A stretch of DNA of 64,000 nucleotides, from positions 19,194 to 83,193 of the forward strand of contig CALSBA010000009.1 in NCBI GenBank assembly GCA_943373065.1, read 5' to 3'. The stretch's first letter is position 1; each line of letters begins with the position of its first letter. This document shows positions 49,125 to 64,000 of this stretch, piece after piece. The notes under the pieces are model-generated. The model was not told the origin of the DNA, did no database searches, and saw only the letters and a list, made by a program, of their open reading frames with translations. The position numbers and the translations under genes are program-made. The DNA comes from Synechococcus sp. UW140. Its GTDB lineage: Bacteria; Cyanobacteriota; Cyanobacteriia; PCC-6307; Cyanobiaceae.

Positions 49125-50546
49125 TCAAGCCGTTGGGGCGAAGGCGGCCTGCAGCAGGGGAATCGCCCGCTCCAGCGCCACGCCGCGGCTGGCCTTGAGC
49201 AGCACCCGATCCCCCGGCTGCAGCCAGTCGAGCAGCACCTCGGCCGCCGCTTCCGGTGAGATCACCCGCTGCAGCCGCGGCAGCCCGGCGGCGGCCGCTT
49301 CCATCGCCTGCGCTTCCTCCCCGGTGGCCACCACCAGCAGACCGTCCAGGCCCAGCTCCCTGGCCCTGGCCGCCACCTGCCGATGCAGCTCCAGGCTGCG
49401 TTCCCCCAGCTCGAGCATCGTGCCCAGCACCGCATAGCGGCGGCCCCCCGCGGCGGTGCCGGTGGCGGCCAGCAGATCCAGGGCCGCCAGCACCGCCTCC
49501 GGCGAGGCGTTGTAGGTCTCATCGAGCAGCTCCACCCCGCCCAGGCTCCAGCGTCGGGACCGCCCCCCCGGCAGCTCCACCGCCAGATCGACGAGGGCCG
49601 TGGCCGGCACGCCCAGCTCCTGGGCCACCGCCACCGCCAGCAGCAGGTTGCGGGCGTTGTGGCGCCCCTCCAGGGGCAGCCGCAGGCTCGGCCCGCCCGC
49701 CAGGCTGAGGACGTCAGCCTTCAGCCGCCCCACCAGGTCCGGCGCCGGCGTTTCAGCCGGGAACCCCGCCCGCTCGTCCTCCAGGGCGACCCGCACCACC
49801 CGGCCCCCCCAGACCCTGGCCAGGGAGAGCTCCAGCAGGGGATCCCCGGCCGGAATCACCAGCACCCCGTCCGGTCCCAGGCCGGCGGTGATCTCGCACT
49901 TGGCCTGGCCGATCGCCTCGCGGCTGCCCAGGCGGCCGATGTGGGCGGTGCCGATGTTGGTGATCACGGCCACATCCGGCTCGGCGCTGCGGGTGAGGCG
50001 ATCGATCTCCCCCAGGCCGCGCATGCCCATCTCCACCACCAAGGCCGCCGTGGCCTCGTTGGCCTTCAGCAGGGTGAGGGGCGCCCCCACGTCGTTGTTT
50101 TCGTTGCCGCTGCTGGCCACCACCGGCCCCAGGGGGGCCAGGGCCGCCTTGATCAGTTCCCGCGTCGTGGTCTTGCCCGCCGAGCCGGTCACCGCCACCA
50201 CCGGCAACCCCAGCTGTCGCCGCCACAGCAGGGCCAGCTGCTGGTAGGCCACCAGGGTGTCGTCCACCAGCCAGATGGGGGCGCCGCCGCCGGCCACCAG
50301 CTCCGCCACGACGTTTTCGGCCAGGCGGTCCTTCTGCACCAGCGCCGCCACCGCACCGGCGGCGAGGGCCTCAGCCAGGAAGCGGTGTCCGTCGAAGCGT
50401 TCCCCCACCAGGGGCACGAACAGGGCGCCGGCCAGGTTGCCGCGGCTGTCGGTGCTCACGCTGGCGAAGGTGTCCGGTGCGCTGGTTCCGGGGGCCATCA
50501 GGGGCTCGCCCCACAGCTGGCGCAGGGGTTCGAACGGCAGCGGCAT
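49125..50546 (-). CDS. murF: UDP-N-acetylmuramoyl-tripeptide--D-alanyl-D-alanine ligase
   Basis: STDSR, VTGSAGKTTT, NNDVG, VEMGM, ITNIG.AH, DETYNASP, LGTMLELG and LLKASRG. Confidence 0.96.
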   Translation of the reverse strand: MPLPFEPLRQLWGEPLMAPGTSAPDTFASVSTDSRGNLAGALFVPLVGERFDGHRFLAEALAAGAVAALVQKDRLAENVVAELVAGGGAPIWLVDDTLVAYQQLALLWRRQLGLPVVAVTGSAGKTTTRELIKAALAPLGPVVASSGNENNDVGAPLTLLKANEATAALVVEMGMRGLGEIDRLTRSAEPDVAVITNIGTAHIGRLGSREAIGQAKCEITAGLGPDGVLVIPAGDPLLELSLARVWGGRVVRVALEDERAGFPAETPAPDLVGRLKADVLSLAGGPSLRLPLEGRHNARNLLLAVAVAQELGVPATALVDLAVELPGGRSRRWSLGGVELLDETYNASPEAVLAALDLLAATGTAAGGRRYAVLGTMLELGERSLELHRQVAARARELGLDGLLVVATGEEAQAMEAAAAGLPRLQRVISPEAAAEVLLDWLQPGDRVLLKASRGVALERAIPLLQAAFAPTA

Positions 50547-51247
50547 CAGCCTGGGGCACCGGGATCGAGCAGGATCATGCCGGAGCCCACCAGGGCCCTG
50601 CGGGCCAGCAGGCGCTGCCGGCCGTCGACCAGCTCCAGCCGCTCGTAGCCGAGGGCCAGGGCGCGCTGCTGCCAGCGATCCGCCCAGCGCCGACGACTCG
50701 CTTCGCCGAAGCCGGTGTAGGTCGGCGCCATGGTGAGCACCAGCCGTCCTTCAGCCGGCACCGGATGGGCCGAGGCGATCAGATGGTCGGGATCATCCTC
50801 CGCCAGGAGCGCCAGGAGGGGGTCGAGTTCGAGGGGCGGTGGCGGCTCAGGCTCCGGCATGGGCTCCTGCACGGCCATGGGGGGCGGGGCCTCCAGGGCT
50901 GGCGCAGCGATGGCTGGGGCCCCCTGGGGCGTCGGGGTCGGCGCCAGCGAAACGGCAGCGTCACCAGTCGTCCGCACCGCCCGGTGGGACAGCCCGCGCC
51001 CCACCTGTCCCGCCAGCGCCAGGGCCAGCGCCAGCAGGGCCGCCAGCAGCAGGGGCCAGAACAGGGGGGCCAGGCCCTGGGGCCAGAAGCCCGGCACCGA
51101 CAGGTCCCCCTCCCGATTGCGCCGCCACAGTTCGTGCAGCTTCAGCCGCAGGGACGCCAGCACGGCCCTCGCGGCGTCCCCGAGCTGGCCCCAGGGACTG
51201 GCGTAGGGCGCCGGCAGATCGGAAGGTGGGGGAACCGGATCAGCCAT
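50546..51247 (-). CDS. Hypothetical single-TM protein with a Pro-rich linker
   Basis: TM around residues 60-80, Pro/Ala-rich spacer, folded-looking C-terminus. Its stop overlaps the murF ATG (TGATG). Confidence 0.7.
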   Translation of the reverse strand: MADPVPPPSDLPAPYASPWGQLGDAARAVLASLRLKLHELWRRNREGDLSVPGFWPQGLAPLFWPLLLAALLALALALAGQVGRGLSHRAVRTTGDAAVSLAPTPTPQGAPAIAAPALEAPPPMAVQEPMPEPEPPPPLELDPLLALLAEDDPDHLIASAHPVPAEGRLVLTMAPTYTGFGEASRRRWADRWQQRALALGYERLELVDGRQRLLARRALVGSGMILLDPGAPG

Positions 51248-51258
51248 GGGCGCCGGAC

Positions 51259-52803
51259 TCAGGAGTCGTTACGGCGACGCAGCAGGGCCAGGGGGTTGCG
51301 GGGCCGCGGCGCCGGCGGGGGTTCCTTGGTGACCACGTCCGGCCTGGGCTCGTCGTTCAACAGGCTCGGGTCGGCTCCCTGGCCCTGGGAGAAGCGCTCC
51401 ACCAGAGCCGCGTCGGGGGTGGGTTCCTTGACGCCGCAGACCTCGCGGTACATGGCGTCGTACTCCAGAGCTGAGCGGTTCCAGCTGAAGTCGGTGGTCA
51501 TGGCCCGGCGTTGCAGGTCCTGCCAGCTGGGCTCGTTGCGGTAGGCCTCCCAGGAGCGCACGATCGTGGTGTAGAAGTCGATGGCCTCGTAGCGATCGAA
51601 GCCGTAGCCCGTGCCGGTGCCGGCGCTGGGGTCGTTGGGGGGCACGGTGTCCACCAGCCCACCGACGCGGCGCACCACCGGAATCGAGCCGTAGCGCATG
51701 GCCAGCATCTGACTGATGCCGCAGGGCTCGAAGCGGCTCGGCATCAGGAAGGCGTCGCTGCCCGCATAGATCAGGCGCGAGAGGGCGTCGTCGTAGGTGA
51801 GGAACACGGCGAAGCGGCCAGGGTGGCGGGCCGCCATCTGCCACAGGCCCGACTCATAGCCGCGCTCACCCGTCCCCAACACCACGAACTGGCTGTCGCT
51901 GTAGGCCAGCACCCGGTCGGCCACCTGCAGCAGCAGGTCGACCCCCTTCTGATCCACCAACCGGCTCACCATGCCCATCAGGTAGCTGCGGGGACTCACG
52001 GCCAGCCCCATCCGTTCTTGCAGCAGCCGTTTGCTGGCGCTGCGGCCGGAGAGGTCGCCTGCCGAGAATGGCTCCGGCAGGGTGGGGTCGGTGGCCGGAT
52101 CCCAGTCCGCGGTGTCGATGCCGTTGAGGATGCCGCGCAACTTGCCGCTGATGAAGTTGAGCAGGCCGTCGATGCGCTCGCCGTATTCGGGCGTGCGGAT
52201 CTCCATCGCATAGGTGGGCGAGACGGCGTTGACCCGGTCGGCATAGAGCAGGGCCGCGGCCATGGTGTGGTCGCCCTGCATGTACCAGGGACACCAGGTC
52301 ATGCGGTCGAGCTTCCAGCGCCAGGGACCCTGATAACGCAGGTTGTGGATGGTGAACACCGTGCTGATTTCCGGGTCCTGGTGCATCCACACCGGGATCA
52401 TGCCGGTGTGCCAGTCGTGACAATGCAGAACCTGGGGTTTCCAGCCGCCGTTCCAGGCGAATTCAGCCGTGGCATTGGCGAAAAAGGTGAAGCGCCAGTC
52501 TTCGTCTTCACCGCCGTAGATGCGCTCCGGATCGAACACCGGATGCCCCACCAGATAGATGGGCAGGCCGCAGCTGGGATGGCGGGTTTCGTAGATGGCG
52601 AAATCGGTACCCATGGCATGGCCACGCCACATCGGCTCGGCGGGAATCTTCAGCCGACTCCACAACTTGCCGTAGCCCGGCAGGATGATGCGCACGTCGT
52701 GGCCCAGGGCCGCCAGGGCCGGTGGCAGGGAGCCCACCACATCTCCCATGCCTCCCACCTTGATCATCGGAGCGCACTCCGCGGCGGCAAACAGAACCCT
52801 CAT
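51259..52803 (-). CDS. glgA: Glycogen synthase
   Basis: KVGGMGDV (KxGG), [24 protein letters not shown] and PSRFEPCG. Confidence 0.97.
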
Positions 52804-52863
52804 CCGCTCTCGATCCCTGGTGCGCCCGGAACTCTACGGGCTGCTCCGCTGGGCTCCCTGGCC

Positions 52864-53421
52864 TCAGGGCAGCACCGTCACCGGGGTGCCCACCTGAACC
52901 AGTTCAAACAGCTCCTTGACGTCCTCGTCGAACAACCGCACGCAGCCATGGGACACGGCGCCGCCGACGCTATTGCGATTCGGCGTGCCATGGAAGCCGG
53001 AGGTGACGCAGCCCTTCACCTCCAGATGCTCCTGGCCGTTGAAACCGCGTCGTCCCTTGCAGTCACGGTGGAAACCGATCCAACGCGAACCGAGGGGATT
53101 GGTGGGGCCCGGGGGAATGCGCACGCCCTTGGCCGGATGCTCCCAGATCGGATAGGCGGTCTTTTCGATCACGCTGAACGATCCCACCGGCGTCTCCCAA
53201 CCGGGCATGCCCACACCGACGCGGAATCGGCGCACCTCCCGTTCCCCTTCCATCACCGTCAGCAGGCGTTGGCGCCGGTTCAGCACCAGCTGGCGTGCCG
53301 ACGGGCTGGCGGTGGCCGTCTCGGATGGGGGAGAGGCGGCGAGCGATGGCACCGGCACCACCATCCCGCTGATCGAGCCGATCAGGGCAACGGCCAGGGG
53401 CATGATGGCTCGGCGATACAC
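52864..53421 (-). CDS. L,D-transpeptidase (YkuD family), secreted
   Basis: Signal peptide, VGVG..GWETPVG, NPLGSRWI and GFHGT...SHGCVRL. Confidence 0.92.
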   Translation of the reverse strand: MYRRAIMPLAVALIGSISGMVVPVPSLAASPPSETATASPSARQLVLNRRQRLLTVMEGEREVRRFRVGVGMPGWETPVGSFSVIEKTAYPIWEHPAKGVRIPPGPTNPLGSRWIGFHRDCKGRRGFNGQEHLEVKGCVTSGFHGTPNRNSVGGAVSHGCVRLFDEDVKELFELVQVGTPVTVLP

Positions 53422-53481
53422 GGTTAGGAGGCTGTCGGCATGGGGCTGACACTTGATCGTAGCCAGCGAAATGGGGCCACG

Positions 53482-53555
53482 GGCCCTTGGCCAAGGAGGG
53501 CCAAGCCAACCGTCCGGCTACGTTGACAGTGATGGCCGGGCGGTAAGGACGGTTG
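53482..53555 (+). other. Palindrome- and hairpin-rich intergenic segment, possible structured RNA or operator
   Basis: 12-bp palindrome CCTTGGCCAAGG at 53485-53496. Arm 53507-53520 can pair with either 53533-53544 or 53547-53555. Confidence 0.3.
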
Positions 53556-54017
53556 CATCCAATCGCTGCCAGGACGTCTGCCGCTCTGCTCATGGGTCTG
53601 GAGATCACGGCTTCATCGCTTGGGTCCCTGGACCACCATCCCGGCGTTCTCTACAGCTACAAGAACGACGCCGTACCGCCAACCTGCTCAAGGAGCTTCT
53701 GGTTGCTCCAGAAGAGCAAGAAAGTCTGGTTCAGACTCGATGAGAAGGTCCGGGGCCTGGCCATGGAGCCAGGCTTTTACTACAGGGGCCGCAGAATTCT
53801 CTACAGCGGCGATCTGATCAAGTTCCCTAAGGAGAAGAGGACATCGCTGGAAGCCAACAGCATCCTCTGGGGCCAGAAGCTGGACAATGGTTGGGGACGG
53901 GGACCGCAGGGTACCAATTATTATCTTCACCTCTGGACACGTTGGTCGGTCTTCCAACCTGCCCGCTGCCATCCGGAGTTTTTCAGCATGACCCGACAAC
54001 CGATTCATCGGCCCTGA
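53553..54017 (+). CDS. Orphan hypothetical protein
   Basis: 154-codon ORF with a TTG start, aromatic/basic-rich, no recognised motif; lies opposite to the EPS locus. Confidence 0.4.
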   Translation: MHPIAARTSAALLMGLEITASSLGSLDHHPGVLYSYKNDAVPPTCSRSFWLLQKSKKVWFRLDEKVRGLAMEPGFYYRGRRILYSGDLIKFPKEKRTSLEANSILWGQKLDNGWGRGPQGTNYYLHLWTRWSVFQPARCHPEFFSMTRQPIHRP

Positions 54018-54483
54018 GGGGGTGGCTCAGGGATAGTCCGTTGGTCCCGTCATCGCGCCTGCAATGGCTGATTGTCCAGCCGTACTGCTTCTGAAGCTTC
54101 AGAAACATCACCAGTCCCCAATGGGCTTCCCGGGCCAGGGGATCATGACCACTGGCTGCGACCTCCGCTTCCACTCTGGCCAGTGCCGCTGTGAAGTCGA
54201 AGGGTTCCCCATGATCAATGATCTGAATGCAGAACGCCTCGCTGGATCGCTGGAGCGAAAGCTGCACCTGGGGCGGCGCAACCAGGTGGGCATGGGCATG
54301 ACGAACGGCATTGGTGAAACCTTCCACCAGTGCCAGTTGAGCCTGCATCCATAGATCCGAAGGAACGTCTGGGTGCTGTTGTCGTTCAAACCAGGACAGC
54401 ACGGTGTCCAGTTCGCCGAGATCGCTGCTGACGGCCAGTTCGCTGATGGGTTGCCGTGCATCGGCTGACAAGTCCGGGTTCAT
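53983..54483 (-). CDS. RsbW/SpoIIAB-like anti-sigma factor Ser/Thr kinase (HATPase_c)
   Basis: LALVEGFTNAVRHAH (N-box) and IIDHGEPFD (G1). ATG overlaps the stop of the STAS-glycosyltransferase gene. Confidence 0.82.
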   Translation of the reverse strand: MNPDLSADARQPISELAVSSDLGELDTVLSWFERQQHPDVPSDLWMQAQLALVEGFTNAVRHAHAHLVAPPQVQLSLQRSSEAFCIQIIDHGEPFDFTAALARVEAEVAASGHDPLAREAHWGLVMFLKLQKQYGWTISHCRRDDGTNGLSLSHPLRADESVVGSC

Positions 54484-55481
54484 GCCGCCCCCGAATCCTT
54501 GCTCAGAAGCACAAGGAATGTTTTGACAATTAATTTCAGATCATAGGCCAGACTCCAATTCTGTTGGTATCTGAGGTCGAGCCTGATCACATCTTCGAAA
54601 TCACGGATCGATGACCTGCCACTCACCTGCCATTCGCCACTCAGCCCGGGGCGCACATCAAAGCGCTGCCAGCTTGGAATGGCATAACGAAGCACCTCAT
54701 CGGGTGTGGCTGGCCGGGTGCCGATCAGGCTCATGTCACCGATCAGCACATTCCAGAACTGGGGCAGCTCATCGAGGCTTGTCTTGCGCAGAATGCGCCC
54801 CACTTTGGTGATCCTGGGGTCGTTGTCGTTTTTGAAGAACGCCCCCTGGGCCTGGTTCACCACCATGCCTTTGAGCACCTCGGCATTGCTGACCATCGAG
54901 CGGAACTTCCAGATGCGGAAATGGCGGCCCATCCAGCCGCAGCGAACCTGGCTGAACAGGATCGGCCCCGGGCTGTCCAGACGGATGGCCAATGCCATCG
55001 GCAGGAACAGCAGCGCCGTGACGCCAAGTCCGATCAGCGCACCACAGATGTCCATGAACCGCTTGAGTCCGGAACGCACCGATGGGTGGGTCAGGGGGGG
55101 GCGTTGGTCTTCGACGTGCGAGAGCTGGGGGAGCAGGCCCTCGGAATGGGCCGCCACTGGCAACACCTTCTCCAGCCCGGTCATCTGCAGCGCCAGGAAC
55201 ACCTGCCGGTGCAGGCTCCAGGCGCAGAGGGGAACGTCTTGCTCCTTGGCGGTCTTGATGGCGCCCACCAGGGCACCGATGCCGCTGCTGTCGATGACGG
55301 CGGTGCGGCCGAAATCCAGAACCACCTGCCGCAGACCATCCACCTCAGCCAGCCAATCGGCGAAGCCGGCACGGAAAGCCACCGCTTCGCTGACGGTGAG
55401 CCGTGGTGGCAGCTGCAGAAACAGGATGCCGTTCCGGACGGTCCTGACGAATGCAGAGTGGGGAGACTGGCTTCCCATCAT
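54480..55481 (-). CDS. STAS (anti-anti-sigma) domain fused to a priming polyprenyl-phosphate glycosylphosphotransferase
   Basis: N-terminal VVLDF...IDSSGIGALV...TGL (SpoIIAA-like). C-terminal KRFMDI, GPILFSQVR.G, KFRSM, DPRIT.VG..LRKTSLDELPQ, GDMSLIG.RP and RPGLSGEWQVSGRS. Confidence 0.9.
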   Translation of the reverse strand: MMGSQSPHSAFVRTVRNGILFLQLPPRLTVSEAVAFRAGFADWLAEVDGLRQVVLDFGRTAVIDSSGIGALVGAIKTAKEQDVPLCAWSLHRQVFLALQMTGLEKVLPVAAHSEGLLPQLSHVEDQRPPLTHPSVRSGLKRFMDICGALIGLGVTALLFLPMALAIRLDSPGPILFSQVRCGWMGRHFRIWKFRSMVSNAEVLKGMVVNQAQGAFFKNDNDPRITKVGRILRKTSLDELPQFWNVLIGDMSLIGTRPATPDEVLRYAIPSWQRFDVRPGLSGEWQVSGRSSIRDFEDVIRLDLRYQQNWSLAYDLKLIVKTFLVLLSKDSGAA

Positions 55482-55969
55482 GTCGCACCAAAATCCGCAG
55501 AAAAATGGCTCTGGAGACTGCGACACAGGGACTGGGCGGAACTGTCCGTCACATCACTGATCGACGTCTGGAACGGGGCCTGGAGAAAGCGAACCAGATC
55601 ACCCGGACTCCAGGCAATCGGCACACCCATTTCCGTCAGCGCCAGGGCGAGTTCCACCTGGTGGTCGTCAACATGCTCCTGGTAGCGAACGCTGCGGGGC
55701 ACAAGAATGAAGGGCTGCTGCATCTCATCAAGCAACAGCACGGTGCCCTCCCCGCAATGGGCAATCACCACCCGTGCCTTGCGAATCAGCGACCGAAAGG
55801 TGTCTTCCTTCACCAACCGATAGACCGTGGTGCCACTGGGGAGAAGGGTACAGGTGCCGTACTGAACAACGATGTCCTCGTTGATCAGTTCCTGTTGGAT
55901 CAAGAGCTCCACCCACTGCATCAGCCGGTTGAAGGGGAACTGCTCCGTACCGACGCTGATGAGAATCAT
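55478..55969 (-). CDS. PssE/Cps14G-family glycosyltransferase catalytic subunit (Alg13-like)
   Basis: ISVGTEQFPFNRL, VIAHCGEGT and PR....EHVDDHQ. Confidence 0.9.
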   Translation of the reverse strand: MILISVGTEQFPFNRLMQWVELLIQQELINEDIVVQYGTCTLLPSGTTVYRLVKEDTFRSLIRKARVVIAHCGEGTVLLLDEMQQPFILVPRSVRYQEHVDDHQVELALALTEMGVPIAWSPGDLVRFLQAPFQTSISDVTDSSAQSLCRSLQSHFSADFGAT

Positions 55970-56421
55970 GATCCGATCTTGCTTTGGACAAGCTCGGCGC
56001 GGGGATAACGAAGCTGCAGCTGGGGCCAGTGAACGTAGAGAATATCAAGAAATGGATGGACGATTCGTGCCGAAAGACTGAGCGTTTGAATACGGGTCAC
56101 GGACTCGATGAACACGGTCTTGCACCCAAACAGTTTACCGATCAGAAGAAAGGGAACGGCAACTCCCGCGCCGGTGGAGAGGATCACGTCCGGCCGCTCG
56201 GTGCGGATCACCTGCAAGGCGAGCCAGAGGTTGCGCAGCAGATTCGGCAGGTTGCGGTTCGTGGGGCTGTGGGCCCAGAGCACCTGCTCCTGGGCCAGGG
56301 CCGTTTCCGTGGTGGCGGTTCGAAACGTGACCCAGAGATGGGGATGGCGCTGCCAGAAATCGGCCAGCTGCTGCAGCGCCTTGAAATGACCCCCTGATGA
56401 GCAGACCAGCAAGACCTTCAT
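55966..56421 (-). CDS. PssD/Cps14F-family glycosyltransferase accessory subunit (Alg14-like)
   Basis: CSSGGH, RPDVILSTGAGVAVP and FIES.TRI..LSLSAR. ATG at 56421. Confidence 0.9.
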   Translation of the reverse strand: MKVLLVCSSGGHFKALQQLADFWQRHPHLWVTFRTATTETALAQEQVLWAHSPTNRNLPNLLRNLWLALQVIRTERPDVILSTGAGVAVPFLLIGKLFGCKTVFIESVTRIQTLSLSARIVHPFLDILYVHWPQLQLRYPRAELVQSKIGS

Positions 56422-57449
56422 CGGCTCAGTTTCCCACGTATGCGCCGCTGCTGACTGGCTCCTGTGGAGCGCAGCATCAGACCCTCCAGCCAGCGATAGG
56501 GAGCCTCCGGCAACAGCCGCAGCAGGTAGGCCGCCAGCAGCGTGATCAGGGTGCGTCGCGGTTCCTCCAGCATCACCCTCCAGTCGGTGGCCAGGGATTG
56601 GTGCAGCAGACGCACGGCCATGGCGCCGTCCCGCTGGCGGGTGGCCCGGCGGGCCAGATAGCGCAGCTGATAGGCGCGGGCCCTGGAGCCCCATTGGGCG
56701 ACGAACTCCGGGTGGGTGGCTTCGGTCTTGAGCAGAACCCGCTCCCAGGAGGCGTACTGCTTCATCAGGTTGGCCGAGAGTCCGCCGTCGCTGATGCGGT
56801 AAAGCGTCAGCGCCTCGGGGAGGCCTTCAATGCGCCAGTGGGTCTGGAGCGCAATCCGCAGCCAGCATTCGATGTCTTCGGACTGACGGAAGCTGTCGTC
56901 AAAGTAGAAGTCTTCCACGTCGCCATAGAGATTCGCCTCAAAGCGAATGGCGGTAAAGACGTCCCGGCGGATCACCACCGCCGAGCCATTGCCGATCGGA
57001 TTGCGACAGAAGACGATCTGCGGGGTGATGTCCTGCAGCCTCGGCATCTGGTAGATCCCGATCGGCCTGGAGTTCTCATCGATGAATCCGGAGCGGGAAT
57101 AGCTGACCCCCACCTCCGGCCGCGATTGCAGATGGGCCACATGGCGCTCCACTTTGGTGGGCAGCCACAGATCATCGCTGTCCAGAAAGCCCAGGAACTC
57201 CCCTTTGGCCTGCCGGATGCCTGTGTTCCGGGCCCCGGCCAGGCCCCGGTTCTGCTGATGCACCACCCGAACGCGCCCGTCCGCGTACCCCTGACAGATC
57301 GCCACCCCGTCATCGGTGGAGCCGTCGTTCACCACCAGGATCTCCAGGTTGGGGTAGGTCTGGCTGAGAACGGATTCCAGGCTTTCCCTCACCGTGGCGG
57401 CGGAGTTGTACAGCGGCATCACCACCGAGACCAGGGGAGATTGGCTCAT
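56418..57449 (-). CDS. Family 2 glycosyltransferase
   Basis: VSVVMPLYN, NDGSTD, GLAGARN.G, FLDSDD (DxD) and SEDIECWLR. Confidence 0.92.
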   Translation of the reverse strand: MSQSPLVSVVMPLYNSAATVRESLESVLSQTYPNLEILVVNDGSTDDGVAICQGYADGRVRVVHQQNRGLAGARNTGIRQAKGEFLGFLDSDDLWLPTKVERHVAHLQSRPEVGVSYSRSGFIDENSRPIGIYQMPRLQDITPQIVFCRNPIGNGSAVVIRRDVFTAIRFEANLYGDVEDFYFDDSFRQSEDIECWLRIALQTHWRIEGLPEALTLYRISDGGLSANLMKQYASWERVLLKTEATHPEFVAQWGSRARAYQLRYLARRATRQRDGAMAVRLLHQSLATDWRVMLEEPRRTLITLLAAYLLRLLPEAPYRWLEGLMLRSTGASQQRRIRGKLSR

Positions 57450-57459
57450 GGGAATGCAC

Positions 57460-58440
57460 TCACGGGCGGAAGGGGGCCAGCAACTGGCGCGCGAAAACGG
57501 CCAGGGCCGTCAGCACGGTACGGCGCGGCTGTCGCAGCAGGATCCGCCAATCCGAACGCAGGGAGCGCAGCATGAAGTCGGTGCCGATGGCGGGCGCTCC
57601 TCCCAGGCGCAGGGAGCGCCGGGCCAGGTAGCGCAGTTGGATGGCCTGGGCGGTGGCGAAGTGTCGCGCCACCAGCTCAGGCGCATAGCCACGGGCTTCG
57701 CTGATCAGCCGCAGCCAGCCCTGTTCCATGCGCTGCAGGCTTGAGGACAGCCCCCCGGCCGAGGTGCGGTAGTAGGTGAGCACCTGCGGTAATCCGGCGA
57801 TCGGCCAGCGGCCATCGCAGGCCACCCGCAGCAGCCATTCCAGATCCTCCGAATAGCTCATGTCAGCGACGAATCCGCCCACCGAATCGAACACCTGCCG
57901 GCGCAGCACCCAATTGGATGTGGTGTTGGTGGGGTTCTCACAGAGAAAATCCACCGGCCGATGCGATTCCCGGGGCAGGGCCGCCAGCAGGCCCGTGGGC
58001 GTCCCCTCAGGGGACAGGAACGCGACGCGGGCGAAACTCACGCCGACATCAGGATGGTTGGCGTGGTACTCCACATGCAGGCGCAGTTTGTCGGGATGCC
58101 AGAGGTCATCGGCATCGAGGAAGGCGATCAGGGGCGCATGGCTGAGGGCCACCCCGCGATTGCGGGCCATGGAGACCCCGGCGTTGGGCTGGCTCACCAG
58201 GTGCACCCGGGGATCGTCTGCGAACAGGCGCGACACGATGGCGAGGCTGTCGTCGCTGGAACCGTCATCAACGGCGATCAGTTCCCAGTTGCTCAGGCTC
58301 TGGTTCTGCACCGAGCGCAGGGTTTGCGCGATGTGAGGCGCCGCGTTGTAGATCGGAACCACCACGGAAATGGCCGGTACGTCCAGTTCGGCTGACTCTG
58401 GAACAAGAGCAGCGGTCTCGTGGTCATCCAAGGACTCCAT
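57460..58440 (-). CDS. Family 2 glycosyltransferase (paralog of the downstream GT2)
   Basis: ISVVVPIYN, DDGSSD, GVSMARN.G, FLDADD and SEDLEWLLR. Confidence 0.92.
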   Translation of the reverse strand: MESLDDHETAALVPESAELDVPAISVVVPIYNAAPHIAQTLRSVQNQSLSNWELIAVDDGSSDDSLAIVSRLFADDPRVHLVSQPNAGVSMARNRGVALSHAPLIAFLDADDLWHPDKLRLHVEYHANHPDVGVSFARVAFLSPEGTPTGLLAALPRESHRPVDFLCENPTNTTSNWVLRRQVFDSVGGFVADMSYSEDLEWLLRVACDGRWPIAGLPQVLTYYRTSAGGLSSSLQRMEQGWLRLISEARGYAPELVARHFATAQAIQLRYLARRSLRLGGAPAIGTDFMLRSLRSDWRILLRQPRRTVLTALAVFARQLLAPFRP

Positions 58441-58448
58441 CGTGGCGG

Positions 58449-59399
58449 CTACGACGTATGGCTGGAGCGGTGGCCACCCAGAAGCCGACGCAGGAAGGCC
58501 TTGAACCGCCCCATCAAGGTAATGCGGATCATCCGCAGGCGTTTGGCGTAGTAATCGAACTGGTTGATCGTTGGCGGCTGACCCTCCTGGAAGTGGTTCA
58601 GCTGGCGCGCAGGCAGCAGCTTGGATGTCCAGTCGACCGAGTTGATATGGCGAAACTGTTCATGGCCGAAACGGGCCTGAAGCTTCTCCTTGATCTGGTC
58701 AGGCGTGCGGTAGGGGTAGTGGCGGTTGTAGAGGCGCTGCGAGCAGGCTTTGGTGAGTCCGTTGGGCCACTGTGGGGCCACCGCTTCGTTCCAGGGTTGA
58801 TCGGGCTGGTTGCGGAAGAAGCGGTATTCCCGCCAATTGGCTGAGTAGTAGAGGCGTCGCTCGGTGATCGGTCGATTGGTTTCAAGCTTCTCGGCCGCCC
58901 AGTTCTTGTAATCGGCATCCGTGTAGTAGAACTGAAGATTCCAGGCCGTCACGAAGTCGGCCCTTTCACGGTTGGCCTTGGCCAGCACCTCCCTGGGATC
59001 CCCTTCCAGGAATTCATCCCCATCGAGCCGCAGCCACCAATCCCGATCACCCAGTTCATGGTTGTACTTGTTGTAGACGACCGATCGCATCCCATCGCGA
59101 AAGGGCACCAGTAGCTGCTCTTCAATCACAATCGCTGGATACTGCCGCGCCAGGGCATTCACGGTTTCCCAGGTGCCATCCGTACTGCCGTTGTCAAGAA
59201 CAAAGATGCGATCACAGAACGTCAGCGCATGAACCAGACAATCAGCAATGACGTCGCCCTCGTTCTTGATCAGGCAGATGGCGTAGATCTTCACGAGTCG
59301 ATCAGGCGGGCGGACGTCGGGGTTGGCTCTGATGGCACCCATGGCACCACGAACGTGATCCAGGCCTGCGGCGGGGGCAGCAAGGCACGAATGCTTCAA
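58449..59399 (-). CDS. GT2-like glycosyltransferase (Glyco_tranf_2_4 type); real start probably GTG 59294 or ATG 59343
   Basis: IYAICLIKNE.DVI, LDNGSTDGT and WWLRLDGDEF. Confidence 0.8.
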   Translation of the reverse strand: MKHSCLAAPAAGLDHVRGAMGAIRANPDVRPPDRLVKIYAICLIKNEGDVIADCLVHALTFCDRIFVLDNGSTDGTWETVNALARQYPAIVIEEQLLVPFRDGMRSVVYNKYNHELGDRDWWLRLDGDEFLEGDPREVLAKANRERADFVTAWNLQFYYTDADYKNWAAEKLETNRPITERRLYYSANWREYRFFRNQPDQPWNEAVAPQWPNGLTKACSQRLYNRHYPYRTPDQIKEKLQARFGHEQFRHINSVDWTSKLLPARQLNHFQEGQPPTINQFDYYAKRLRMIRITLMGRFKAFLRRLLGGHRSSHTS

Positions 59400-59471
59400 T
59401 CACCATAACCGCGCGTTGAGCGCGCCCTCAACGGCGCCACGATGTTGAAGCCTCAGGCTTGCGACAGTGGC

Positions 59472-60752
59472 TCACAGGCTTGCTGGCTGGGTGATCTGAA
59501 TCCTTCGCAGCAGCCGCTGCCCCATCATCAGGTAGATCGGCTGCAGCGAGAGATGGGCCGCCGCCACGGCCACGGCCACGCCCAGGGATCCCCAGGTTGT
59601 GCCGATCAGGATGGCCACGGTGAGAGCCACGGTGAAGGCCAGGTTCCAGAGCAGGTCCACCTGGGGCAAGCCCACGGCTCGGAACAGCATCGACGAGGCG
59701 TTGGCAAAGGGGCGTGACAGGGCCGACAGGCAGATCAGCATCAGGATCGGCACGGCACCTTCCGACACCCACTTCTGACCAAAAACGATCGGTACATAGA
59801 GGGGTGCCAGACTGCATTGCAACGCCACAACGGGCACGATCACCTTGGTGATGGTGAGCAGATTCTTGCTGAAGCGTCTTTTCAGTTCGGCGGGTTGGCC
59901 ACGGACGTCACAGAAGTCGGAGTAGATGGAGACGGACAGGGCATTGATCACACTCAGACTCAGACCCAATCCTGCGTTGAAGGCGAAGAAGTACACCCCA
60001 AGCGCTTTGACACCGATGAACCGACCGATCAGCAGATAGTCCACATTCTCTCGGAAGGTGTTGAGCATCTCCACACCCAGGATGCGACTGCCGAAGCCCA
60101 GCACGGATTTCCATCGCTTAAGCGTTAACGTCATCACGGGCCGCCAGGGCTCGAAGCGCAGCATCATGGCGACCCAGACGGGAGCCACCAACAGCTTGGG
60201 CAGCACAATCGCCCACATGCCCATGCCCATCAGGGCAAAGATTCCCGTCAGCAGGTTGTCGGTGACAACGGCTGTGAGGTTGGTCAAGCTGTAGAACTTC
60301 AGCCGATTCTGCCTGCGCACCAAGGCCGTCTGGACCATGGAGAGTGGGTAGATCAGATAGCTGAAACTGACCACGATGATCGGCAGGATCAGCGCGTTGT
60401 CTTTATAAATGCTGGCAAAGATAAACGAACCAACGATCTGCACGAGAAAGAGGCTGAAGCCGATCATCCAGTTCAGGCTCCATGCCGTCTGGCAGATCTC
60501 CTGGACATCCTTCTCATCGGCCTGCACGATCTTGTCGCCGATGCCGTTGCGTGTGAAGACCTTGACAAGCTCACCGGACGTCAACACGATCGCGGCAAGG
60601 CCATAGTCCCTGGGGCTCAGCAGCCTGGCCAGCAGAACCGTGGCCAGCAGCCGCGAGACGCGAATCCCCACCTCCCCCACGCCCATCCAACCGATGTTGC
60701 GGATGAATCGATCCTTCGGGATGAACCGCTTCAGGCTGCTGAGCAGGCGCAT
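59472..60752 (-). CDS. Wzx-type oligosaccharide flippase
   Basis: LARLLSPRDYG, about 11-12 TMs, DYLLIGRFIG..ALGVYFFA and P..FG.KW (PST family). Confidence 0.88.
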   Translation of the reverse strand: MRLLSSLKRFIPKDRFIRNIGWMGVGEVGIRVSRLLATVLLARLLSPRDYGLAAIVLTSGELVKVFTRNGIGDKIVQADEKDVQEICQTAWSLNWMIGFSLFLVQIVGSFIFASIYKDNALILPIIVVSFSYLIYPLSMVQTALVRRQNRLKFYSLTNLTAVVTDNLLTGIFALMGMGMWAIVLPKLLVAPVWVAMMLRFEPWRPVMTLTLKRWKSVLGFGSRILGVEMLNTFRENVDYLLIGRFIGVKALGVYFFAFNAGLGLSLSVINALSVSIYSDFCDVRGQPAELKRRFSKNLLTITKVIVPVVALQCSLAPLYVPIVFGQKWVSEGAVPILMLICLSALSRPFANASSMLFRAVGLPQVDLLWNLAFTVALTVAILIGTTWGSLGVAVAVAAAHLSLQPIYLMMGQRLLRRIQITQPASL

Positions 60753-60854
60753 CAAGGGCTAACCCCACGCGTTCGAGCTGTCATTGGACAGCCTCCTGTC
60801 TCTGGATTGCTCATCATGGCATCAAAGCTGGTAACGGCTGGCAGACCGGATGAA

Positions 60855-62186
60855 TCACGCTATGGGCTGAACTTCAGGCTGGAGGGAGCCTTTCTTCTCC
60901 TGTAGAGCCATTCCCATGATAAGCATTCCAGGCCAGAAGAGGTAGACCAGAATCTCCAGATTCTCGCCAAACGTATACATGAACAAAAGAATGATAATTC
61001 CCAGCCCGGCTGATCCAAGTTGATAGCGGGAACTGGCTGCACGGCGCAATAGATCAAGCGCTGTAACCAACATGGGAACAGCCAGAGCGACGAAGCCAAC
61101 AATACCCTTCACAAAAAGCACCCCGGCCCAGGTGTGATGGGAGCCAATGGCCATGTACTCAACCAGATGGGGGCCACCCTCGACAACACCATGCCCCCAG
61201 ATCGGAGCCTCTGTCTCCCAGCGATGGAAGGCTATTCGTTTTAATGCAAAGCGAACACGCGTAGAACCAGCCCGTGCACCTTTAAATCCTTCCCAGTAGT
61301 CGTTGATGGCAGTAAGTATGGAAGTGGCAAAGATTCCTCCTAGATAGGATACAATTCCAAGAGAAATCAGCATGGACGGTTTGCGGAGCCTGGAAACCAC
61401 CGCCGTAACGGTTGGGATCAAGATGATGGCAAGCTGGGCAAGACGCGACTTGCAGACGAAGCACATGACGATGGATCCAATGATGCCAAGAGTTTTCCAT
61501 CTGCGATCCTTTTCCAGAAGACAAATCATGAAGTTGATGTTACCCACAAAGCCAAGGGCCGGCCCCCATGGAGAGAAGAGGCGCCAGCGAAGGTCACCGG
61601 TGCTGCCGTCAATCTCGTAGAGTGGAACATCAAAGAATTCATTTCCTGGACCACCGACGGCTCTCAATGGAGAGACATAGAGCACTTCTGGCAGGCCCAG
61701 ATGCGGGGTTAGCAGAAGCAGCGGCATGATCAGGAGCGTATGAAAGCCTACGATGCAAATGGCACGTGTCGGGATGCTGCTGCGAATCGGCAGAGCCCCT
61801 GCCAAGGGATAGAGCGCCAGGGCAGCCCACCCTTTAGCCCAACCAATCGTGGACTTGATGATCGCTCCAGTCCCTAGATTGAAGTTCACATGTCCTGCAA
61901 TCAAGGCAACCTCCATGATGATCATGCCGATGATCCAAAGCAAGATCACGGGTGATATGGAAATTTCTTCATTGTCCTCTGGGTGATCCATTCGTGCCAG
62001 GATCTTGATCAGCAGGCAACCCAGGAGTAGCCAGCACAGAACAGACCCCACAACATAAAGGCCCCCGAATAGCCAGATAGGGTAGGTGCAAACAATCGAC
62101 CACCAGACCAAACGCTCGGGCCAATTTCTTGGCTGAAGATCATCTTCAGACTGGAATACCTTTGAAAGAAGCGTTTTAAGTCCCAA
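60855..62186 (-). CDS. Wzy/O-antigen ligase-like polysaccharide polymerase
   Basis: About 10-11 TMs, CKSR, a periplasmic loop STRVR...PIWGHG...GSHHTW and G.VGF. Confidence 0.75.
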   Translation of the reverse strand: MGLKTLLSKVFQSEDDLQPRNWPERLVWWSIVCTYPIWLFGGLYVVGSVLCWLLLGCLLIKILARMDHPEDNEEISISPVILLWIIGMIIMEVALIAGHVNFNLGTGAIIKSTIGWAKGWAALALYPLAGALPIRSSIPTRAICIVGFHTLLIMPLLLLTPHLGLPEVLYVSPLRAVGGPGNEFFDVPLYEIDGSTGDLRWRLFSPWGPALGFVGNINFMICLLEKDRRWKTLGIIGSIVMCFVCKSRLAQLAIILIPTVTAVVSRLRKPSMLISLGIVSYLGGIFATSILTAINDYWEGFKGARAGSTRVRFALKRIAFHRWETEAPIWGHGVVEGGPHLVEYMAIGSHHTWAGVLFVKGIVGFVALAVPMLVTALDLLRRAASSRYQLGSAGLGIIILLFMYTFGENLEILVYLFWPGMLIMGMALQEKKGSLQPEVQPIA

Positions 62187-62199
62187 TGAAGACTCCTTG

Positions 62200-63711
62200 T
62201 TATGTTGAAATCCAATTGGCGACCCGTTTGATCCAAGGCTTGCGGATCCATAGGATCCAAAGACCTACAGTCGTCAGGATGGAACCAAAGGCTGAGCCAG
62301 CAAGCACCAACGTTCGCTTTGGTGACGTCGCTTTTTCAGGCAAGGATGGCTCAACAGCGATTTGAATCAGCGGGAATGCTGCAAAGATGTTCGCCTGACC
62401 AAGATCCAGTTTGGCCAATGTGGAGGCAAAGACAGCTTCTGCTATCTGTTCATTCCGTTTAAGGTTCTCCAATGAAGACTGCCTTTGGGACATCAACCTG
62501 AGGCGCCCCTCCAAGGAGCTGATCTGTTGATCAAGCTTGCCAACCTGTGAGGCTGCACCTGAAGCATCTGACTGGTAGTTCACCAAGTTCTGGAATAGTG
62601 AATCGCGACCCGAACTGGCACCAGTCAACGCCAGTCGTGAGAGTGTCTGGGCCGATGGTGGCCGACCAAGCAACTCCTTGGCACGCTGATTCATCGCCTG
62701 TCTGGCAGCCTCTTGCCGCTTGATCTCTTTGAGAATTCGAGGATTATTGCGGCCGAACTTAGACAGTTGGACCTTGAGTATGGACGTCGCTTCGCTGTAG
62801 TCCTTCACATTCTGTTGGAAGATCTGATCAACCTGCAACTTGAACGCATCTGTGGCCTCTGAAGGAGACAGCCCCAGGCTGCGACTCAACTTCTGCAATC
62901 GACTCTCAGCCTGCGATTGCTGAGCGGCAAGTTCGGCTCTCTGTTTGCGAAGCTGTTCAATGTTAGCCGACAGGATTTCAACCTGTTCGGTAGAGGTGAG
63001 TCCAGACTGGCGCTTGTAGGCGGAGACTTGCTTTTGCGCAGTCTCAAGTTTCTGCTGCGTTTCCAGCAGAATCTTCTGCGCTGGACCTTGCCGTTGCTCG
63101 ATCTCACTGACACGCAGCTCATTGAGACGCTCTACCATGGCGTCATGCAACGCATAGGCGCGCTTGCGTGCATCTAGAGGCGATGGACCGGTGGCATCAA
63201 TCTGCATCAGCGTTGTGTTATCAATGTTCTTAATGCGAGGCTTGGCGAAATCCGCCTTAGGAATACTGGCAATCTTTGCAGCCCTTGCCAGAACCTGGTC
63301 GCTAACGAAGATGTATTCGTAGTTGGCACGGGGATCAAATGTAGCCAGGCCAAGGGATTCGTTTGATGCCGTAGCTTGACCAATTTCAGGTAGGCTTAAG
63401 TTCACAGCATTCGCGCTTCCAGGTAAAACTAAAGCAAATGAGCTAGTGTAGACAGGTTTCGCAAGTGCAAGATACAAAATACTGGTACCCCATATCAATC
63501 CATTTGTGCATGTGGATACGAAAAGATAACGACTCCAGCGAAGCTTGTCGGTTCGACTCAGTCTGTTCCACCAACCTTTTGGATCGGGTGCCTTCAACCC
63601 AGGAATATTTCGGAACTGCTCGGCAAACAGTCGCTTCGCCTTGCCCAAGGGTTCTTGCACGGCCTGCACCTTAGGCCTGAGTCGTCTGATGATCGGCGGA
63701 GAGTCTTTCAC
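62200..63711 (-). CDS. Polysaccharide co-polymerase / chain-length determinant (GumC/Wzc-N-like), no kinase domain
   Basis: TM then P.YTSS, long coiled-coil periplasmic region, Pro-rich PSLPEKATSP motif before the C-terminal TM, short tail. Confidence 0.82.
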   Translation of the reverse strand: MKDSPPIIRRLRPKVQAVQEPLGKAKRLFAEQFRNIPGLKAPDPKGWWNRLSRTDKLRWSRYLFVSTCTNGLIWGTSILYLALAKPVYTSSFALVLPGSANAVNLSLPEIGQATASNESLGLATFDPRANYEYIFVSDQVLARAAKIASIPKADFAKPRIKNIDNTTLMQIDATGPSPLDARKRAYALHDAMVERLNELRVSEIEQRQGPAQKILLETQQKLETAQKQVSAYKRQSGLTSTEQVEILSANIEQLRKQRAELAAQQSQAESRLQKLSRSLGLSPSEATDAFKLQVDQIFQQNVKDYSEATSILKVQLSKFGRNNPRILKEIKRQEAARQAMNQRAKELLGRPPSAQTLSRLALTGASSGRDSLFQNLVNYQSDASGAASQVGKLDQQISSLEGRLRLMSQRQSSLENLKRNEQIAEAVFASTLAKLDLGQANIFAAFPLIQIAVEPSLPEKATSPKRTLVLAGSAFGSILTTVGLWILWIRKPWIKRVANWIST

Positions 63712-63717
63712 TCGATT

Positions 63718-64000
63718 CTAGGGAATACTGCGATCATAAATCAAAACAGCTGGATTGAGAAACTGAGTAAAAATGCTAAGGACAGCCTGGAAGTTGGTCA
63801 TCTTGGAGTCATAACAGGCAACACCATCGTCTGCCATGAGATAGGGGTTGTTGGCGTTGTCTGTAGACGCGCGAAGAAGATCTTCTACGCCTCTTTCGTA
63901 GGCAGTCGTCTTGCCCGAGATCCTTTCCGTTCTCACCAGGATGGCTCGGCGTCGCGCATTGGTGACCATGGTTCCACCAGCACAGTTGGCCGAGATCACC
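63718..64000 (-). CDS. C-terminus of a probable Wza-like polysaccharide export protein (partial, continues beyond the window)
   Basis: ANC.GG...NARRRA.LV and NP.LM.DDGVACYDS resemble the SLBB-containing C-terminus of cyanobacterial export proteins. Directly upstream of the co-polymerase. Confidence 0.6.
   Translation of the reverse strand, partial: VISANCAGGTMVTNARRRAILVRTERISGKTTAYERGVEDLLRASTDNANNPYLMADDGVACYDSKMTNFQAVLSIFTQFLNPAVLIYDRSIP

Follow-up and report, generated by a model that had tools for sequence, protein, structure and literature searches.

A STAS-fused priming transferase and an RsbW-type kinase

We analysed a 64,000-nt stretch of contig CALSBA010000009.1 of Synechococcus sp. 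UW140, here called the window, and concentrated on two overlapping genes of its minus strand, one encoding a priming phosphoglycosyl transferase (PGT) fused to a STAS domain and the other an RsbW/SpoIIAB-type serine kinase. The window corresponds to C9:19194-83193; figures marked C9 are contig coordinates, some of which lie beyond the window end. The genome comprises 3.43 Mb with 68% G+C, and its proteins are nearest to those of freshwater Cyanobium/Synechococcus. On the minus strand, positions 53983-63999 form a single tightly packed operon for exopolysaccharide (EPS) synthesis, and the fusion and the kinase are encoded by its last two genes (Table 1). The stop codon of the preceding PssE-like gene and the start codon of the fusion gene share an ATGA at 55478-55481, and the fusion stop overlaps the kinase start in the same manner at 54480-54483. 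Translational coupling from PssE through the fusion to the kinase would be expected to fix the enzyme:kinase ratio.

The 333-aa fusion protein has the architecture of the cyanobacterial STAS + Bac_transf priming transferases of the All4160/All2285/XssP type. When compared with the models of large PGTs (TIGR03025/EPS_sugtrans, WcaJ and WbaP), only the C-terminal ~190 positions of these models aligned to the fusion. It is therefore regarded as a small monotopic transferase in which STAS (PF01740, aa 14-112) replaces the N-terminal membrane block, as had been proposed in an earlier note made on the same DNA. In the AlphaFold model of the fusion (predicted local distance difference test (pLDDT) score 72, weak inter-domain linker) the N-terminal part matched SpoIIAA (1TID_B/1TH8_B) and RsbV (6M36_B) at a root-mean-square deviation of ~2 Å, and the C-terminal part matched PglC (8E37, 8G1N) and WbaP (8T53). 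STAS domains of SulP/SLC26 transporters were likewise found among the fold matches.

The phospho-acceptor motif DSSG, which the earlier note had read as intact, was indeed found at exactly 55281-55292 (residues 64-67). In an alignment of 41 homologs D64, S65, S66 and G67 were invariant, and so were D237, E238, P240 and Q241 as well as the G254-T255-R256-P257 motif of the transferase. In addition, we surveyed the best 80 loci, with one genome per species, among which 44 encode full fusions; 42 of these 44 fusions from other genomes retained DSSG. Ser65 aligned with the first Ser of DSSG in all relatives, which is the position of Ser74 in All4160.

A search of the kinase (166 aa) against the PDB by sequence alone gave nothing significant (best E 0.44), so that a fold comparison was needed. 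Its AlphaFold model (pLDDT 85) showed as best PDB folds SpoIIAB (1TH8/1TIL/1TID/1L0O), the mycobacterial UsfX (8JZT/8IH8) and B. subtilis RsbW (6M36/6M37). Together with the PF13581 match and the overlap at 54480-54483, this confirms that the gene following the fusion encodes an RsbW/SpoIIAB-like kinase, as the earlier note had it. Among 39 kinase homologs, the N box residues E54, N58 and H62 and the G1 box residues D90, G92 and F95 were invariant. At the G2 box, the near clade has HWG and more distant homologs have GRG, with G123 alone being invariant.

The HWG motif raised the idea of a pseudokinase, which was dropped: HWG is conserved across genera, and All2284 of Anabaena, which carries the same unusual ATP-lid motif, phosphorylates a STAS serine in vitro. 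The atypical ATP lid therefore need not be a sign of a dead kinase.

The remaining genes of the operon encode export, flippase and glycosyltransferase functions (Table 1). The locus had been described in the earlier note as a Wzy locus. The Wzx flippase is firm (E 1.9e-53), whereas Wzy itself is only a candidate, by position and multi-span sequence; a Pfam scan of 60855-62186 gave no family match. Downstream of the kinase gene, the terminator-like hairpins found were weak ones only.

Table 1. Features of the EPS operon and of the genomic island that contains it (window positions, or contig positions where marked C9)
Feature	Position	Strand	Basis and remarks
RsbW/SpoIIAB-type serine kinase, 166 aa	53983..54483	-	HATPase_c_2 PF13581 E 2.2e-13; ortholog of Anabaena All2284
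Kinase variant G2 box (HWG)	54112-54123	-	
Kinase G1 box	54199-54216	-	
Kinase N box	54292-54324	-	
STAS-fused priming PGT, 333 aa	54480..55481	-	Pfam STAS + Bac_transf; ortholog of Anabaena All2285
Bac_transf catalytic domain, aa 140-326	54504..55064	-	PF02397 E 4.3e-63
Asp-Glu dyad D237-E238 of Bac_transf domain	54768..54773	-	
Long hydrophobic helix aa 138-169, predicted re-entrant membrane helix of monotopic PGT	54975..55070	-	AlphaFold2 helix; fold match to PglC 8E37/8G1N
STAS domain, aa 14-112	55146..55442	-	PF01740 E 2.2e-11
DSSG phospho-acceptor motif, residues 64-67	55281..55292	-	Ser65 at 55287-55289
PssE/Alg13-like glycosyltransferase half	55478..55969	-	PF04101, NF041548; 65% identity to Anabaena neighbour of All2285
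PssD/Alg14-like glycosyltransferase half	55966..56424	-	PF08660, NF041549 above cut-off; 72% identity to Anabaena counterpart
GT2 glycosyltransferase	56418..57449	-	64% identity to Anabaena cluster III GT2
GT2 glycosyltransferase	57460..58440	-	52% identity to Anabaena cluster III GT2
GT2-like glycosyltransferase	58449..59399	-	PF13704 E 1.1e-12; no counterpart in Anabaena cluster
Wzx flippase	59472..60755	-	Polysacc_synt_3 PF13440 E 1.9e-53; 57% identical to Anabaena protein at all2290 position
Multi-span membrane protein, candidate Wzy polymerase	60855..62186	-	Position and multi-span sequence; 91% identical in L001
GumC/Wzz-like co-polymerase candidate	62200..63711	-	Weak Wzz match, E 0.26; position as alr2295 'GumC' in Anabaena
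Wza-like export gene, 3' end	63718..64000, extends past window (C9 82911-83954)	-	Poly_export E 2.6e-6, SLBB_2
HAMP-GAF hybrid kinase	Island, beyond window		
Insertion sequence (IS) remnant	C9 88079-89256		Transposase (DUF772) split into two open reading frames (ORFs); between export/kinase genes and GT8 + pyruvyl transferase
GT8 and pyruvyl transferase genes	Island, beyond window		
H-NOX	C9 92521-93117		PF07700 E 2e-51; E 3e-70 to Alr2278 (PDB 2O09), 58% identity by eye
HNOBA hybrid histidine kinase with Hpt domain	C9 93125-95650		
REC-SpoIIE (PP2C) phosphatase	C9 95656-96828		REC and SpoIIE domains both present; acidic and metal-binding motifs by eye
Free STAS with MDSSG, divergent	C9 96851-97216		Beside REC-SpoIIE
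Two more hybrid kinases	Island, beyond window		
GAF-GGDEF protein, far end of island	C9 101307-102278		Reads SDDEF where GG(D/E)EF expected

Orthology to Anabaena All2285 and All2284

The Anabaena protein P0156 (333 aa, GenBank BAB73984/All2285) is 62% identical to the window fusion. Downstream of BAB73984 lie BAB73983 (HATPase_c_2, 165 aa) and then BAB73982 (free STAS, 109 aa). The gene numbers all2283-all2285 rest on the BAB73982-84 identifiers, on the operon table of PMC12267927 and on the adjacency of all2284 and all2285 in PMC13555669. The P0156 locus encodes, in this order, a pyruvyl transferase, two GT4 and the Wzx proteins, two GT2 proteins, Alg14, Alg13, the STAS-PGT, the kinase and the free STAS, beyond which follow a 1783-aa Ser/Thr-kinase/histidine kinase (HK), a REC protein and a divergent REC-SpoIIE. 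In the published table all2283 appears as an antagonist and all2284 as RsbW; glycosyltransferases are assigned to all2285-89, an export protein to all2290 and a pyruvyl transferase to all2293, after which alr2294-96 follow as Wza, GumC and a membrane protein (PMC12267927). For all2293-all2283 the P0156 locus agrees with this table.

The gene order Wzx-GT2-GT2-Alg14-Alg13-fusion-kinase is common to the window and to Anabaena cluster III (all2283-all2293). Besides the fusion, identity to the Anabaena proteins amounts to 41% for the kinase and 50% for the pyruvyl transferase; the values for Alg13, Alg14, the two GT2 proteins and Wzx are given in Table 1. In a maximum-likelihood tree the window fusion, L001, Aphanothece (L004), Nostoc FACHB-280 (L003), All2285 and L002 formed a clade with a support of 100/99, and all of its members have a kinase gene in cis. 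A separate clade (support 100/100) holds 19 Nostocales fusions, none with a cis kinase. From fusion length and serine position this clade is presumably of the All4160 type; All4160 itself is not in the tree. Based on the identity of the fusions, the clade and the synteny of eight genes, we consider the window pair to be orthologous to All2285/All2284.

The neighbourhood of Anabaena cluster III resembles that of the window genes also in the presence of a pyruvyl transferase, Wza-like and GumC-like proteins, a free STAS, a REC-SpoIIE and an H-NOX. Unlike in Anabaena, the free STAS, REC-PP2C, H-NOX and hybrid kinase genes of the Synechococcus genome are separated from the kinase gene by ~19-24 kb and occupy the far end of a genomic island of low G+C, with the IS remnant, GT8 and an extra hybrid kinase in between. 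Moreover, two GT4 genes and the gene for the 1783-aa Ser/Thr-kinase/HK, all present in Anabaena, are missing from the island, whereas one extra GT2-like gene is present in the window. Published reports on All2285 describe its induction by desiccation and salt, and in biofilms.

Co-occurrence of the fusion and the kinase

In the wide survey, a kinase homolog was encoded directly downstream of 13 of the 44 fusions from other genomes, and 31 have no cis kinase. Loci with the fusion directly upstream of the kinase were also found in Nostoc, Aphanothece, Microcystis, Planktothrix, Limnothrix, Laspinema and Spirulina. Within the family of the window organism the kinase occurs in 20 of 151 genomes, and within the genus in three out of five. 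Among the 19 other family genomes with the kinase, 17 carry a fusion STAS ~1 kb upstream on the same strand. As to the two exceptions, one kinase gene has an in-frame stop, and the other has no detectable fusion STAS beside it. The earlier note had held that its proposal would fall if the kinase gene did not accompany the fusion in other genomes; for this clade the two genes do occur together, with the fusion adjacent in 17 of 19 kinase carriers.

A SpoIIE gene is located on the contig of the kinase, at a distance of 2-43 kb, in 17 of these 19 related genomes, and several have an adjacent free STAS. The four genes for fusion, kinase, free STAS and REC-PP2C stand side by side in L003 (Nostoc FACHB-280) and L036 (Laspinema), and in the Anabaena contig L081 they are spread over no more than 8 kb.

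A phosphatase, a free STAS and a possible H-NOX relay on the same island

The EPS and signalling genes form an island of ~30 kb with 51-63% G+C (C9 ~72.7-102.3 kb, that is window 53450-64000 onward). Its flanks have ~70% G+C; one side carries the core genes for L,D-transpeptidase and GlgA, and the genes of the other side are likewise high in G+C. At the window-side edge, neither a tRNA gene nor an obvious integration mark was present in 50000-64000. We regard the island as acquired and the cassette as moving horizontally.

Within the island, H-NOX, the HNOBA kinase and REC-SpoIIE form a co-directional block (C9 92521-96828; window-equivalent 73328-77635, ~9-13 kb past the window end). In Nostoc FACHB-280 (L003 11545-17891) this block adjoins the fusion-kinase pair, so that H-NOX, HNOBA kinase, REC-PP2C, free STAS, kinase and fusion are contiguous. 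In Anabaena, alr2278-alr2280 are listed as one operon, with alr2279 as hybrid sensor and alr2280 as response regulator; their gene numbers place them close to all2283, and the Nostoc H-NOX that has been crystallised is Alr2278. H-NOX was found in just five of the 19 related kinase-carrying genomes and therefore appears to be an optional input; in four of these five it lies within ~4 kb of the island SpoIIE gene. A literature search found no paper tying H-NOX to the fusion-kinase switch.

The linked set of H-NOX, HNOBA kinase, REC-PP2C and free STAS suggests a phosphorelay input fed by nitric oxide (NO) or O2 and a second STAS partner for the kinase, which are not covered in PMC13555669. The corresponding chain would run from H-NOX, sensing NO or O2, through the HNOBA kinase to REC-PP2C and on to two STAS partners of one kinase, with the free STAS titrating the kinase as a decoy. 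We put this chain forward tentatively and consider it somewhat more doubtful than probable. If true, a gas signal would gate exopolysaccharide priming post-translationally in cyanobacteria, and the long-studied Nostoc H-NOX (Alr2278) would have a physiological output.

A sigma factor gene was absent from the annotated genes of the 30-kb island and from the Anabaena cluster. In canonical partner switching of the RsbU-V-W-sigma type, the module is accompanied by the gene for its switched partner, which is a sigma factor or some other separate protein; none of the island genes encodes a sigma factor. One REC-SpoIIE is present in the island and linked in 17/19 relatives, and the genome holds four SpoIIE proteins in total.

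Elsewhere in the genome (G000 C4:39569-41555), SpoIIE (417 aa), HATPase_c_2 (169 aa) and STAS (132 aa) genes form a compact trio, which amounts to a second partner-switching module with a more canonical look. The GAF-GGDEF protein encoded at the far end of the island may be unable to make cyclic di-GMP, judging by its SDDEF motif.

A phospho-switch proposed for the priming enzyme

A switch of this kind has been described for All4160, a STAS + Bac_transf protein of Anabaena sp. PCC 7120 (Harada, Matsuoka and Ehira, Mol Microbiol 126:237 (2026), PMC13555669, and a preprint). Phosphorylation of the STAS serine by the kinase Alr3423 switches All4160 off, and its activity is restored by the REC-SpoIIE phosphatase HenR; All4160 Ser74Ala restores heterocyst polysaccharide in a mutant without HenR (PMC13555669). 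Two RsbW-type kinases, Alr3423 and All2284, bind to the All4160 STAS domain and phosphorylate Ser74 in vitro, and loss of alr3423 suppresses the henR defect (PMC13555669). In the authors' conclusion, the enzyme itself is the direct target of a partner-switching-like module. They also reported that all2284 adjoins all2285, encoding another STAS-glycosyltransferase, named XssP of Synechocystis as a STAS + sugar transferase fusion, described such fusions as widespread in cyanobacteria and rare elsewhere, and stated that the Alr3423 ortholog of N. punctiforme belongs to neither the Hmp nor the Hcy system (PMC13555669). The remark in the earlier note that no functional study of a fusion with its kinase was known has thus been out of date since 2026.

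We think it likely that the window pair is part of a phospho-switch in a Wzx/Wzy-type EPS operon, which acts on the first committed enzyme and is reset by REC-PP2C. We read the fusion as a polyprenyl-phosphate phosphoglycosyl transferase of the small monotopic kind, whose N-terminal STAS domain is cytoplasmic and of the SpoIIAA/RsbV type. From orthology and from the activity of All2284, the kinase is predicted to phosphorylate Ser65 of DSSG, and by analogy to All4160 the phosphorylated fusion would be inactive. The island REC-PP2C, ~22 kb away, is expected from HenR and from linkage to remove the phosphate and thereby to turn priming on. It would probably be driven by the phosphorelay of the island, from H-NOX to the HNOBA hybrid kinase with its Hpt domain, plus three more hybrid kinases. 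The free STAS beside the phosphatase may serve as a second substrate or as a competitor for the kinase; that such a decoy makes the response switch-like is speculation.

Our analysis contributes to this reading the domains, motifs and folds, the orthology to All2285/All2284 and the conserved linkage. Phosphorylation of the serine, its negative effect and the role of REC-SpoIIE were shown by others for the paralog, and we infer that they extend to the All2285 group. The same holds for the proposal of the earlier note that the switch acts directly on the priming enzyme without a sigma factor: it has been demonstrated for All4160/Alr3423/HenR, and it would apply to the window pair through its orthology to All2285/All2284.

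Several points weigh against this interpretation. The biochemistry and genetics come from All4160 and not from the window pair or All2285. The sign of the regulation is borrowed from a paralog that presumably belongs to a different clade. That All2284 acts on All2285 is a suggestion of the authors of PMC13555669 and not a result, and the in vitro activity of All2284 was reported to be weaker than that of Alr3423 (PMC13555669). The G2 box of the kinase is without its first glycine, with HWG instead of GxG. REC-PP2C is encoded 22 kb from the kinase, three other SpoIIE genes are present in the genome, and the pairing is by linkage only. Furthermore, when cis-kinase loci of Microcystis, Planktothrix, Limnothrix, Spirulina and others were searched by tblastn and hidden Markov models (HMMs), no free STAS or PP2C gene was found up to 10 kb away, and the four-gene association is therefore not universal among cis-kinase loci.

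Three other explanations were weighed against the enzyme phospho-switch. The kinase could act mainly by binding the unphosphorylated STAS domain of the fusion and so sequestering the enzyme, with phosphorylation only resetting the complex and dephosphorylated free STAS pulling the kinase off; the enzyme would then take the place of the sigma factor in the RsbU-V-W scheme. One kinase and two STAS partners are indeed encoded together in the island, in L003, in L036 and in Anabaena (all2283/all2284/all2285), the ATP lid of the kinase is atypical, and bacterial two-hybrid (BACTH) assays showed stronger binding of the kinases to the S74A STAS domain than to its wild-type form (PMC13555669). We nevertheless regard sequestration as unlikely. 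All2284 is catalytically active, and the restored function of All4160 Ser74Ala without the phosphatase is the opposite of what pure sequestration predicts (both PMC13555669); in addition, many cis-kinase loci have no free STAS nearby.

The resemblance of the kinase fold to the anti-sigma factors SpoIIAB, UsfX and RsbW, and the public annotation of the Anabaena ortholog as 'Sigma-B activity negative regulator', would fit a reversed circuit in which the kinase is the anti-sigma factor of a sigma factor encoded elsewhere and the membrane-anchored STAS-PGT is its antagonist, reporting the priming state to transcription. However, with no sigma gene in the 30-kb island or the Anabaena cluster, a kinase that travels with the fusion and not with a sigma gene, and All4160 genetics that put the output at the enzyme (PMC13555669), such a circuit is quite improbable. 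Even less credit can be given to a STAS domain that works as a non-phosphorylated ligand-binding or oligomerisation module of the transferase, with the neighbouring kinase serving the free STAS only. The SulP/SLC26 domains among the fold matches and the 31/44 fusions without a cis kinase speak for it, but the DSSG serine is nearly invariant in the fusions whether or not a cis kinase is present, the fusion and kinase genes overlap, and the STAS domain of the All4160 fusion is phosphorylated by two such kinases (PMC13555669). The enzyme phospho-switch accounts better than any of the three for the All4160 genetics and the conserved serine.

Comparison with other systems

The closest known systems appear to be those of the All2285/All2284 and All4160 type, rather than HmpUWV of Nostoc punctiforme, which the earlier note had cited for comparison. 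The All4160 system shares with the window genes a STAS + Bac_transf protein with DSSG, the same type of kinase, the REC + SpoIIE type of phosphatase and control at the level of the enzyme instead of a sigma factor. All4160 works in the synthesis of the heterocyst envelope polysaccharide, with its kinase and phosphatase genes at other sites of the Anabaena genome, whereas the window organism is unicellular and without heterocysts.

In the syp locus of Vibrio fischeri (SypA/SypE), the phosphorylation state of a STAS serine controls polysaccharide production post-transcriptionally, and the input is a hybrid kinase/Hpt relay that can be modulated by an H-NOX protein. SypA itself is a STAS protein on its own for which no target is known, SypE combines kinase and PP2C in a single polypeptide, and the locus is not known to encode a STAS-enzyme fusion. 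The Bacillus circuits RsbU-RsbV-RsbW-SigB and SpoIIE-SpoIIAA-SpoIIAB-SigF resemble the window module in their kinase and STAS folds, the DSSG phospho-site and the PP2C input. Unlike in these circuits, no sigma factor is involved, and the output would be an enzyme domain covalently joined to STAS.

XssP of the synechan xss cluster in Synechocystis sp. PCC 6803 is likewise, by its description, the priming glycosyltransferase of a Wzx/Wzy cluster with a hybrid kinase and a response regulator (PMC8205485). The regulation studied there is transcriptional, through XssS/XssR/XssQ (Maeda et al., eLife 2021; PMC8205485). The terms 'anti-sigma' and 'PP2C' do not occur in PMC8205485, and a full-text search for XssP and STAS did not return this paper.

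The mechanism, the wide spread of the fusion in cyanobacteria and the All2284/All2285 pair are already in print, and the discovery of an ortholog of a gene pair named in the 2026 paper (PMC13555669) is a modest one. What the window would add is that the phospho-switch at the level of the priming enzyme, proven for one heterocyst-specific enzyme, also occurs in unicellular freshwater picocyanobacteria, there in the form of a compact cassette that moves horizontally. With the kinase in cis the cognate pair is unambiguous, which makes it a cleaner biochemical system than All4160, whose kinase needed screening. In addition, the linked H-NOX/phosphorelay/REC-PP2C/free-STAS set is a pointer to a testable signal for the switch.

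A second record of the island

The same island, with cyanobacterial flanks, is carried by L001 (CALRKA020000001.1), a record titled as a metagenome-assembled genome (MAG) of Tabrizicola sp., an alphaproteobacterium. Its flanks are shared with the window genome (GlgA 95.5%, L,D-transpeptidase 99% and MurF 81% identical), and the L001 record is probably mislabelled or mis-binned.

Compared with L001 (10999-11475), the kinase shows 67% identity, whereas other island proteins reach 87-93% and the flanking GlgA 95.5%. By these identities, the kinase is the fastest-changing gene of the operon between the two records.

On the plus strand, a 154-aa ORF (53553-54017) runs convergently towards the kinase gene and shares 35 nt with its 3' end. 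No Pfam family matched this ORF, and it shows 67% identity over 153 aa in L001. This ORF could be a small conserved gene, or just conserved DNA at the edge of the island.

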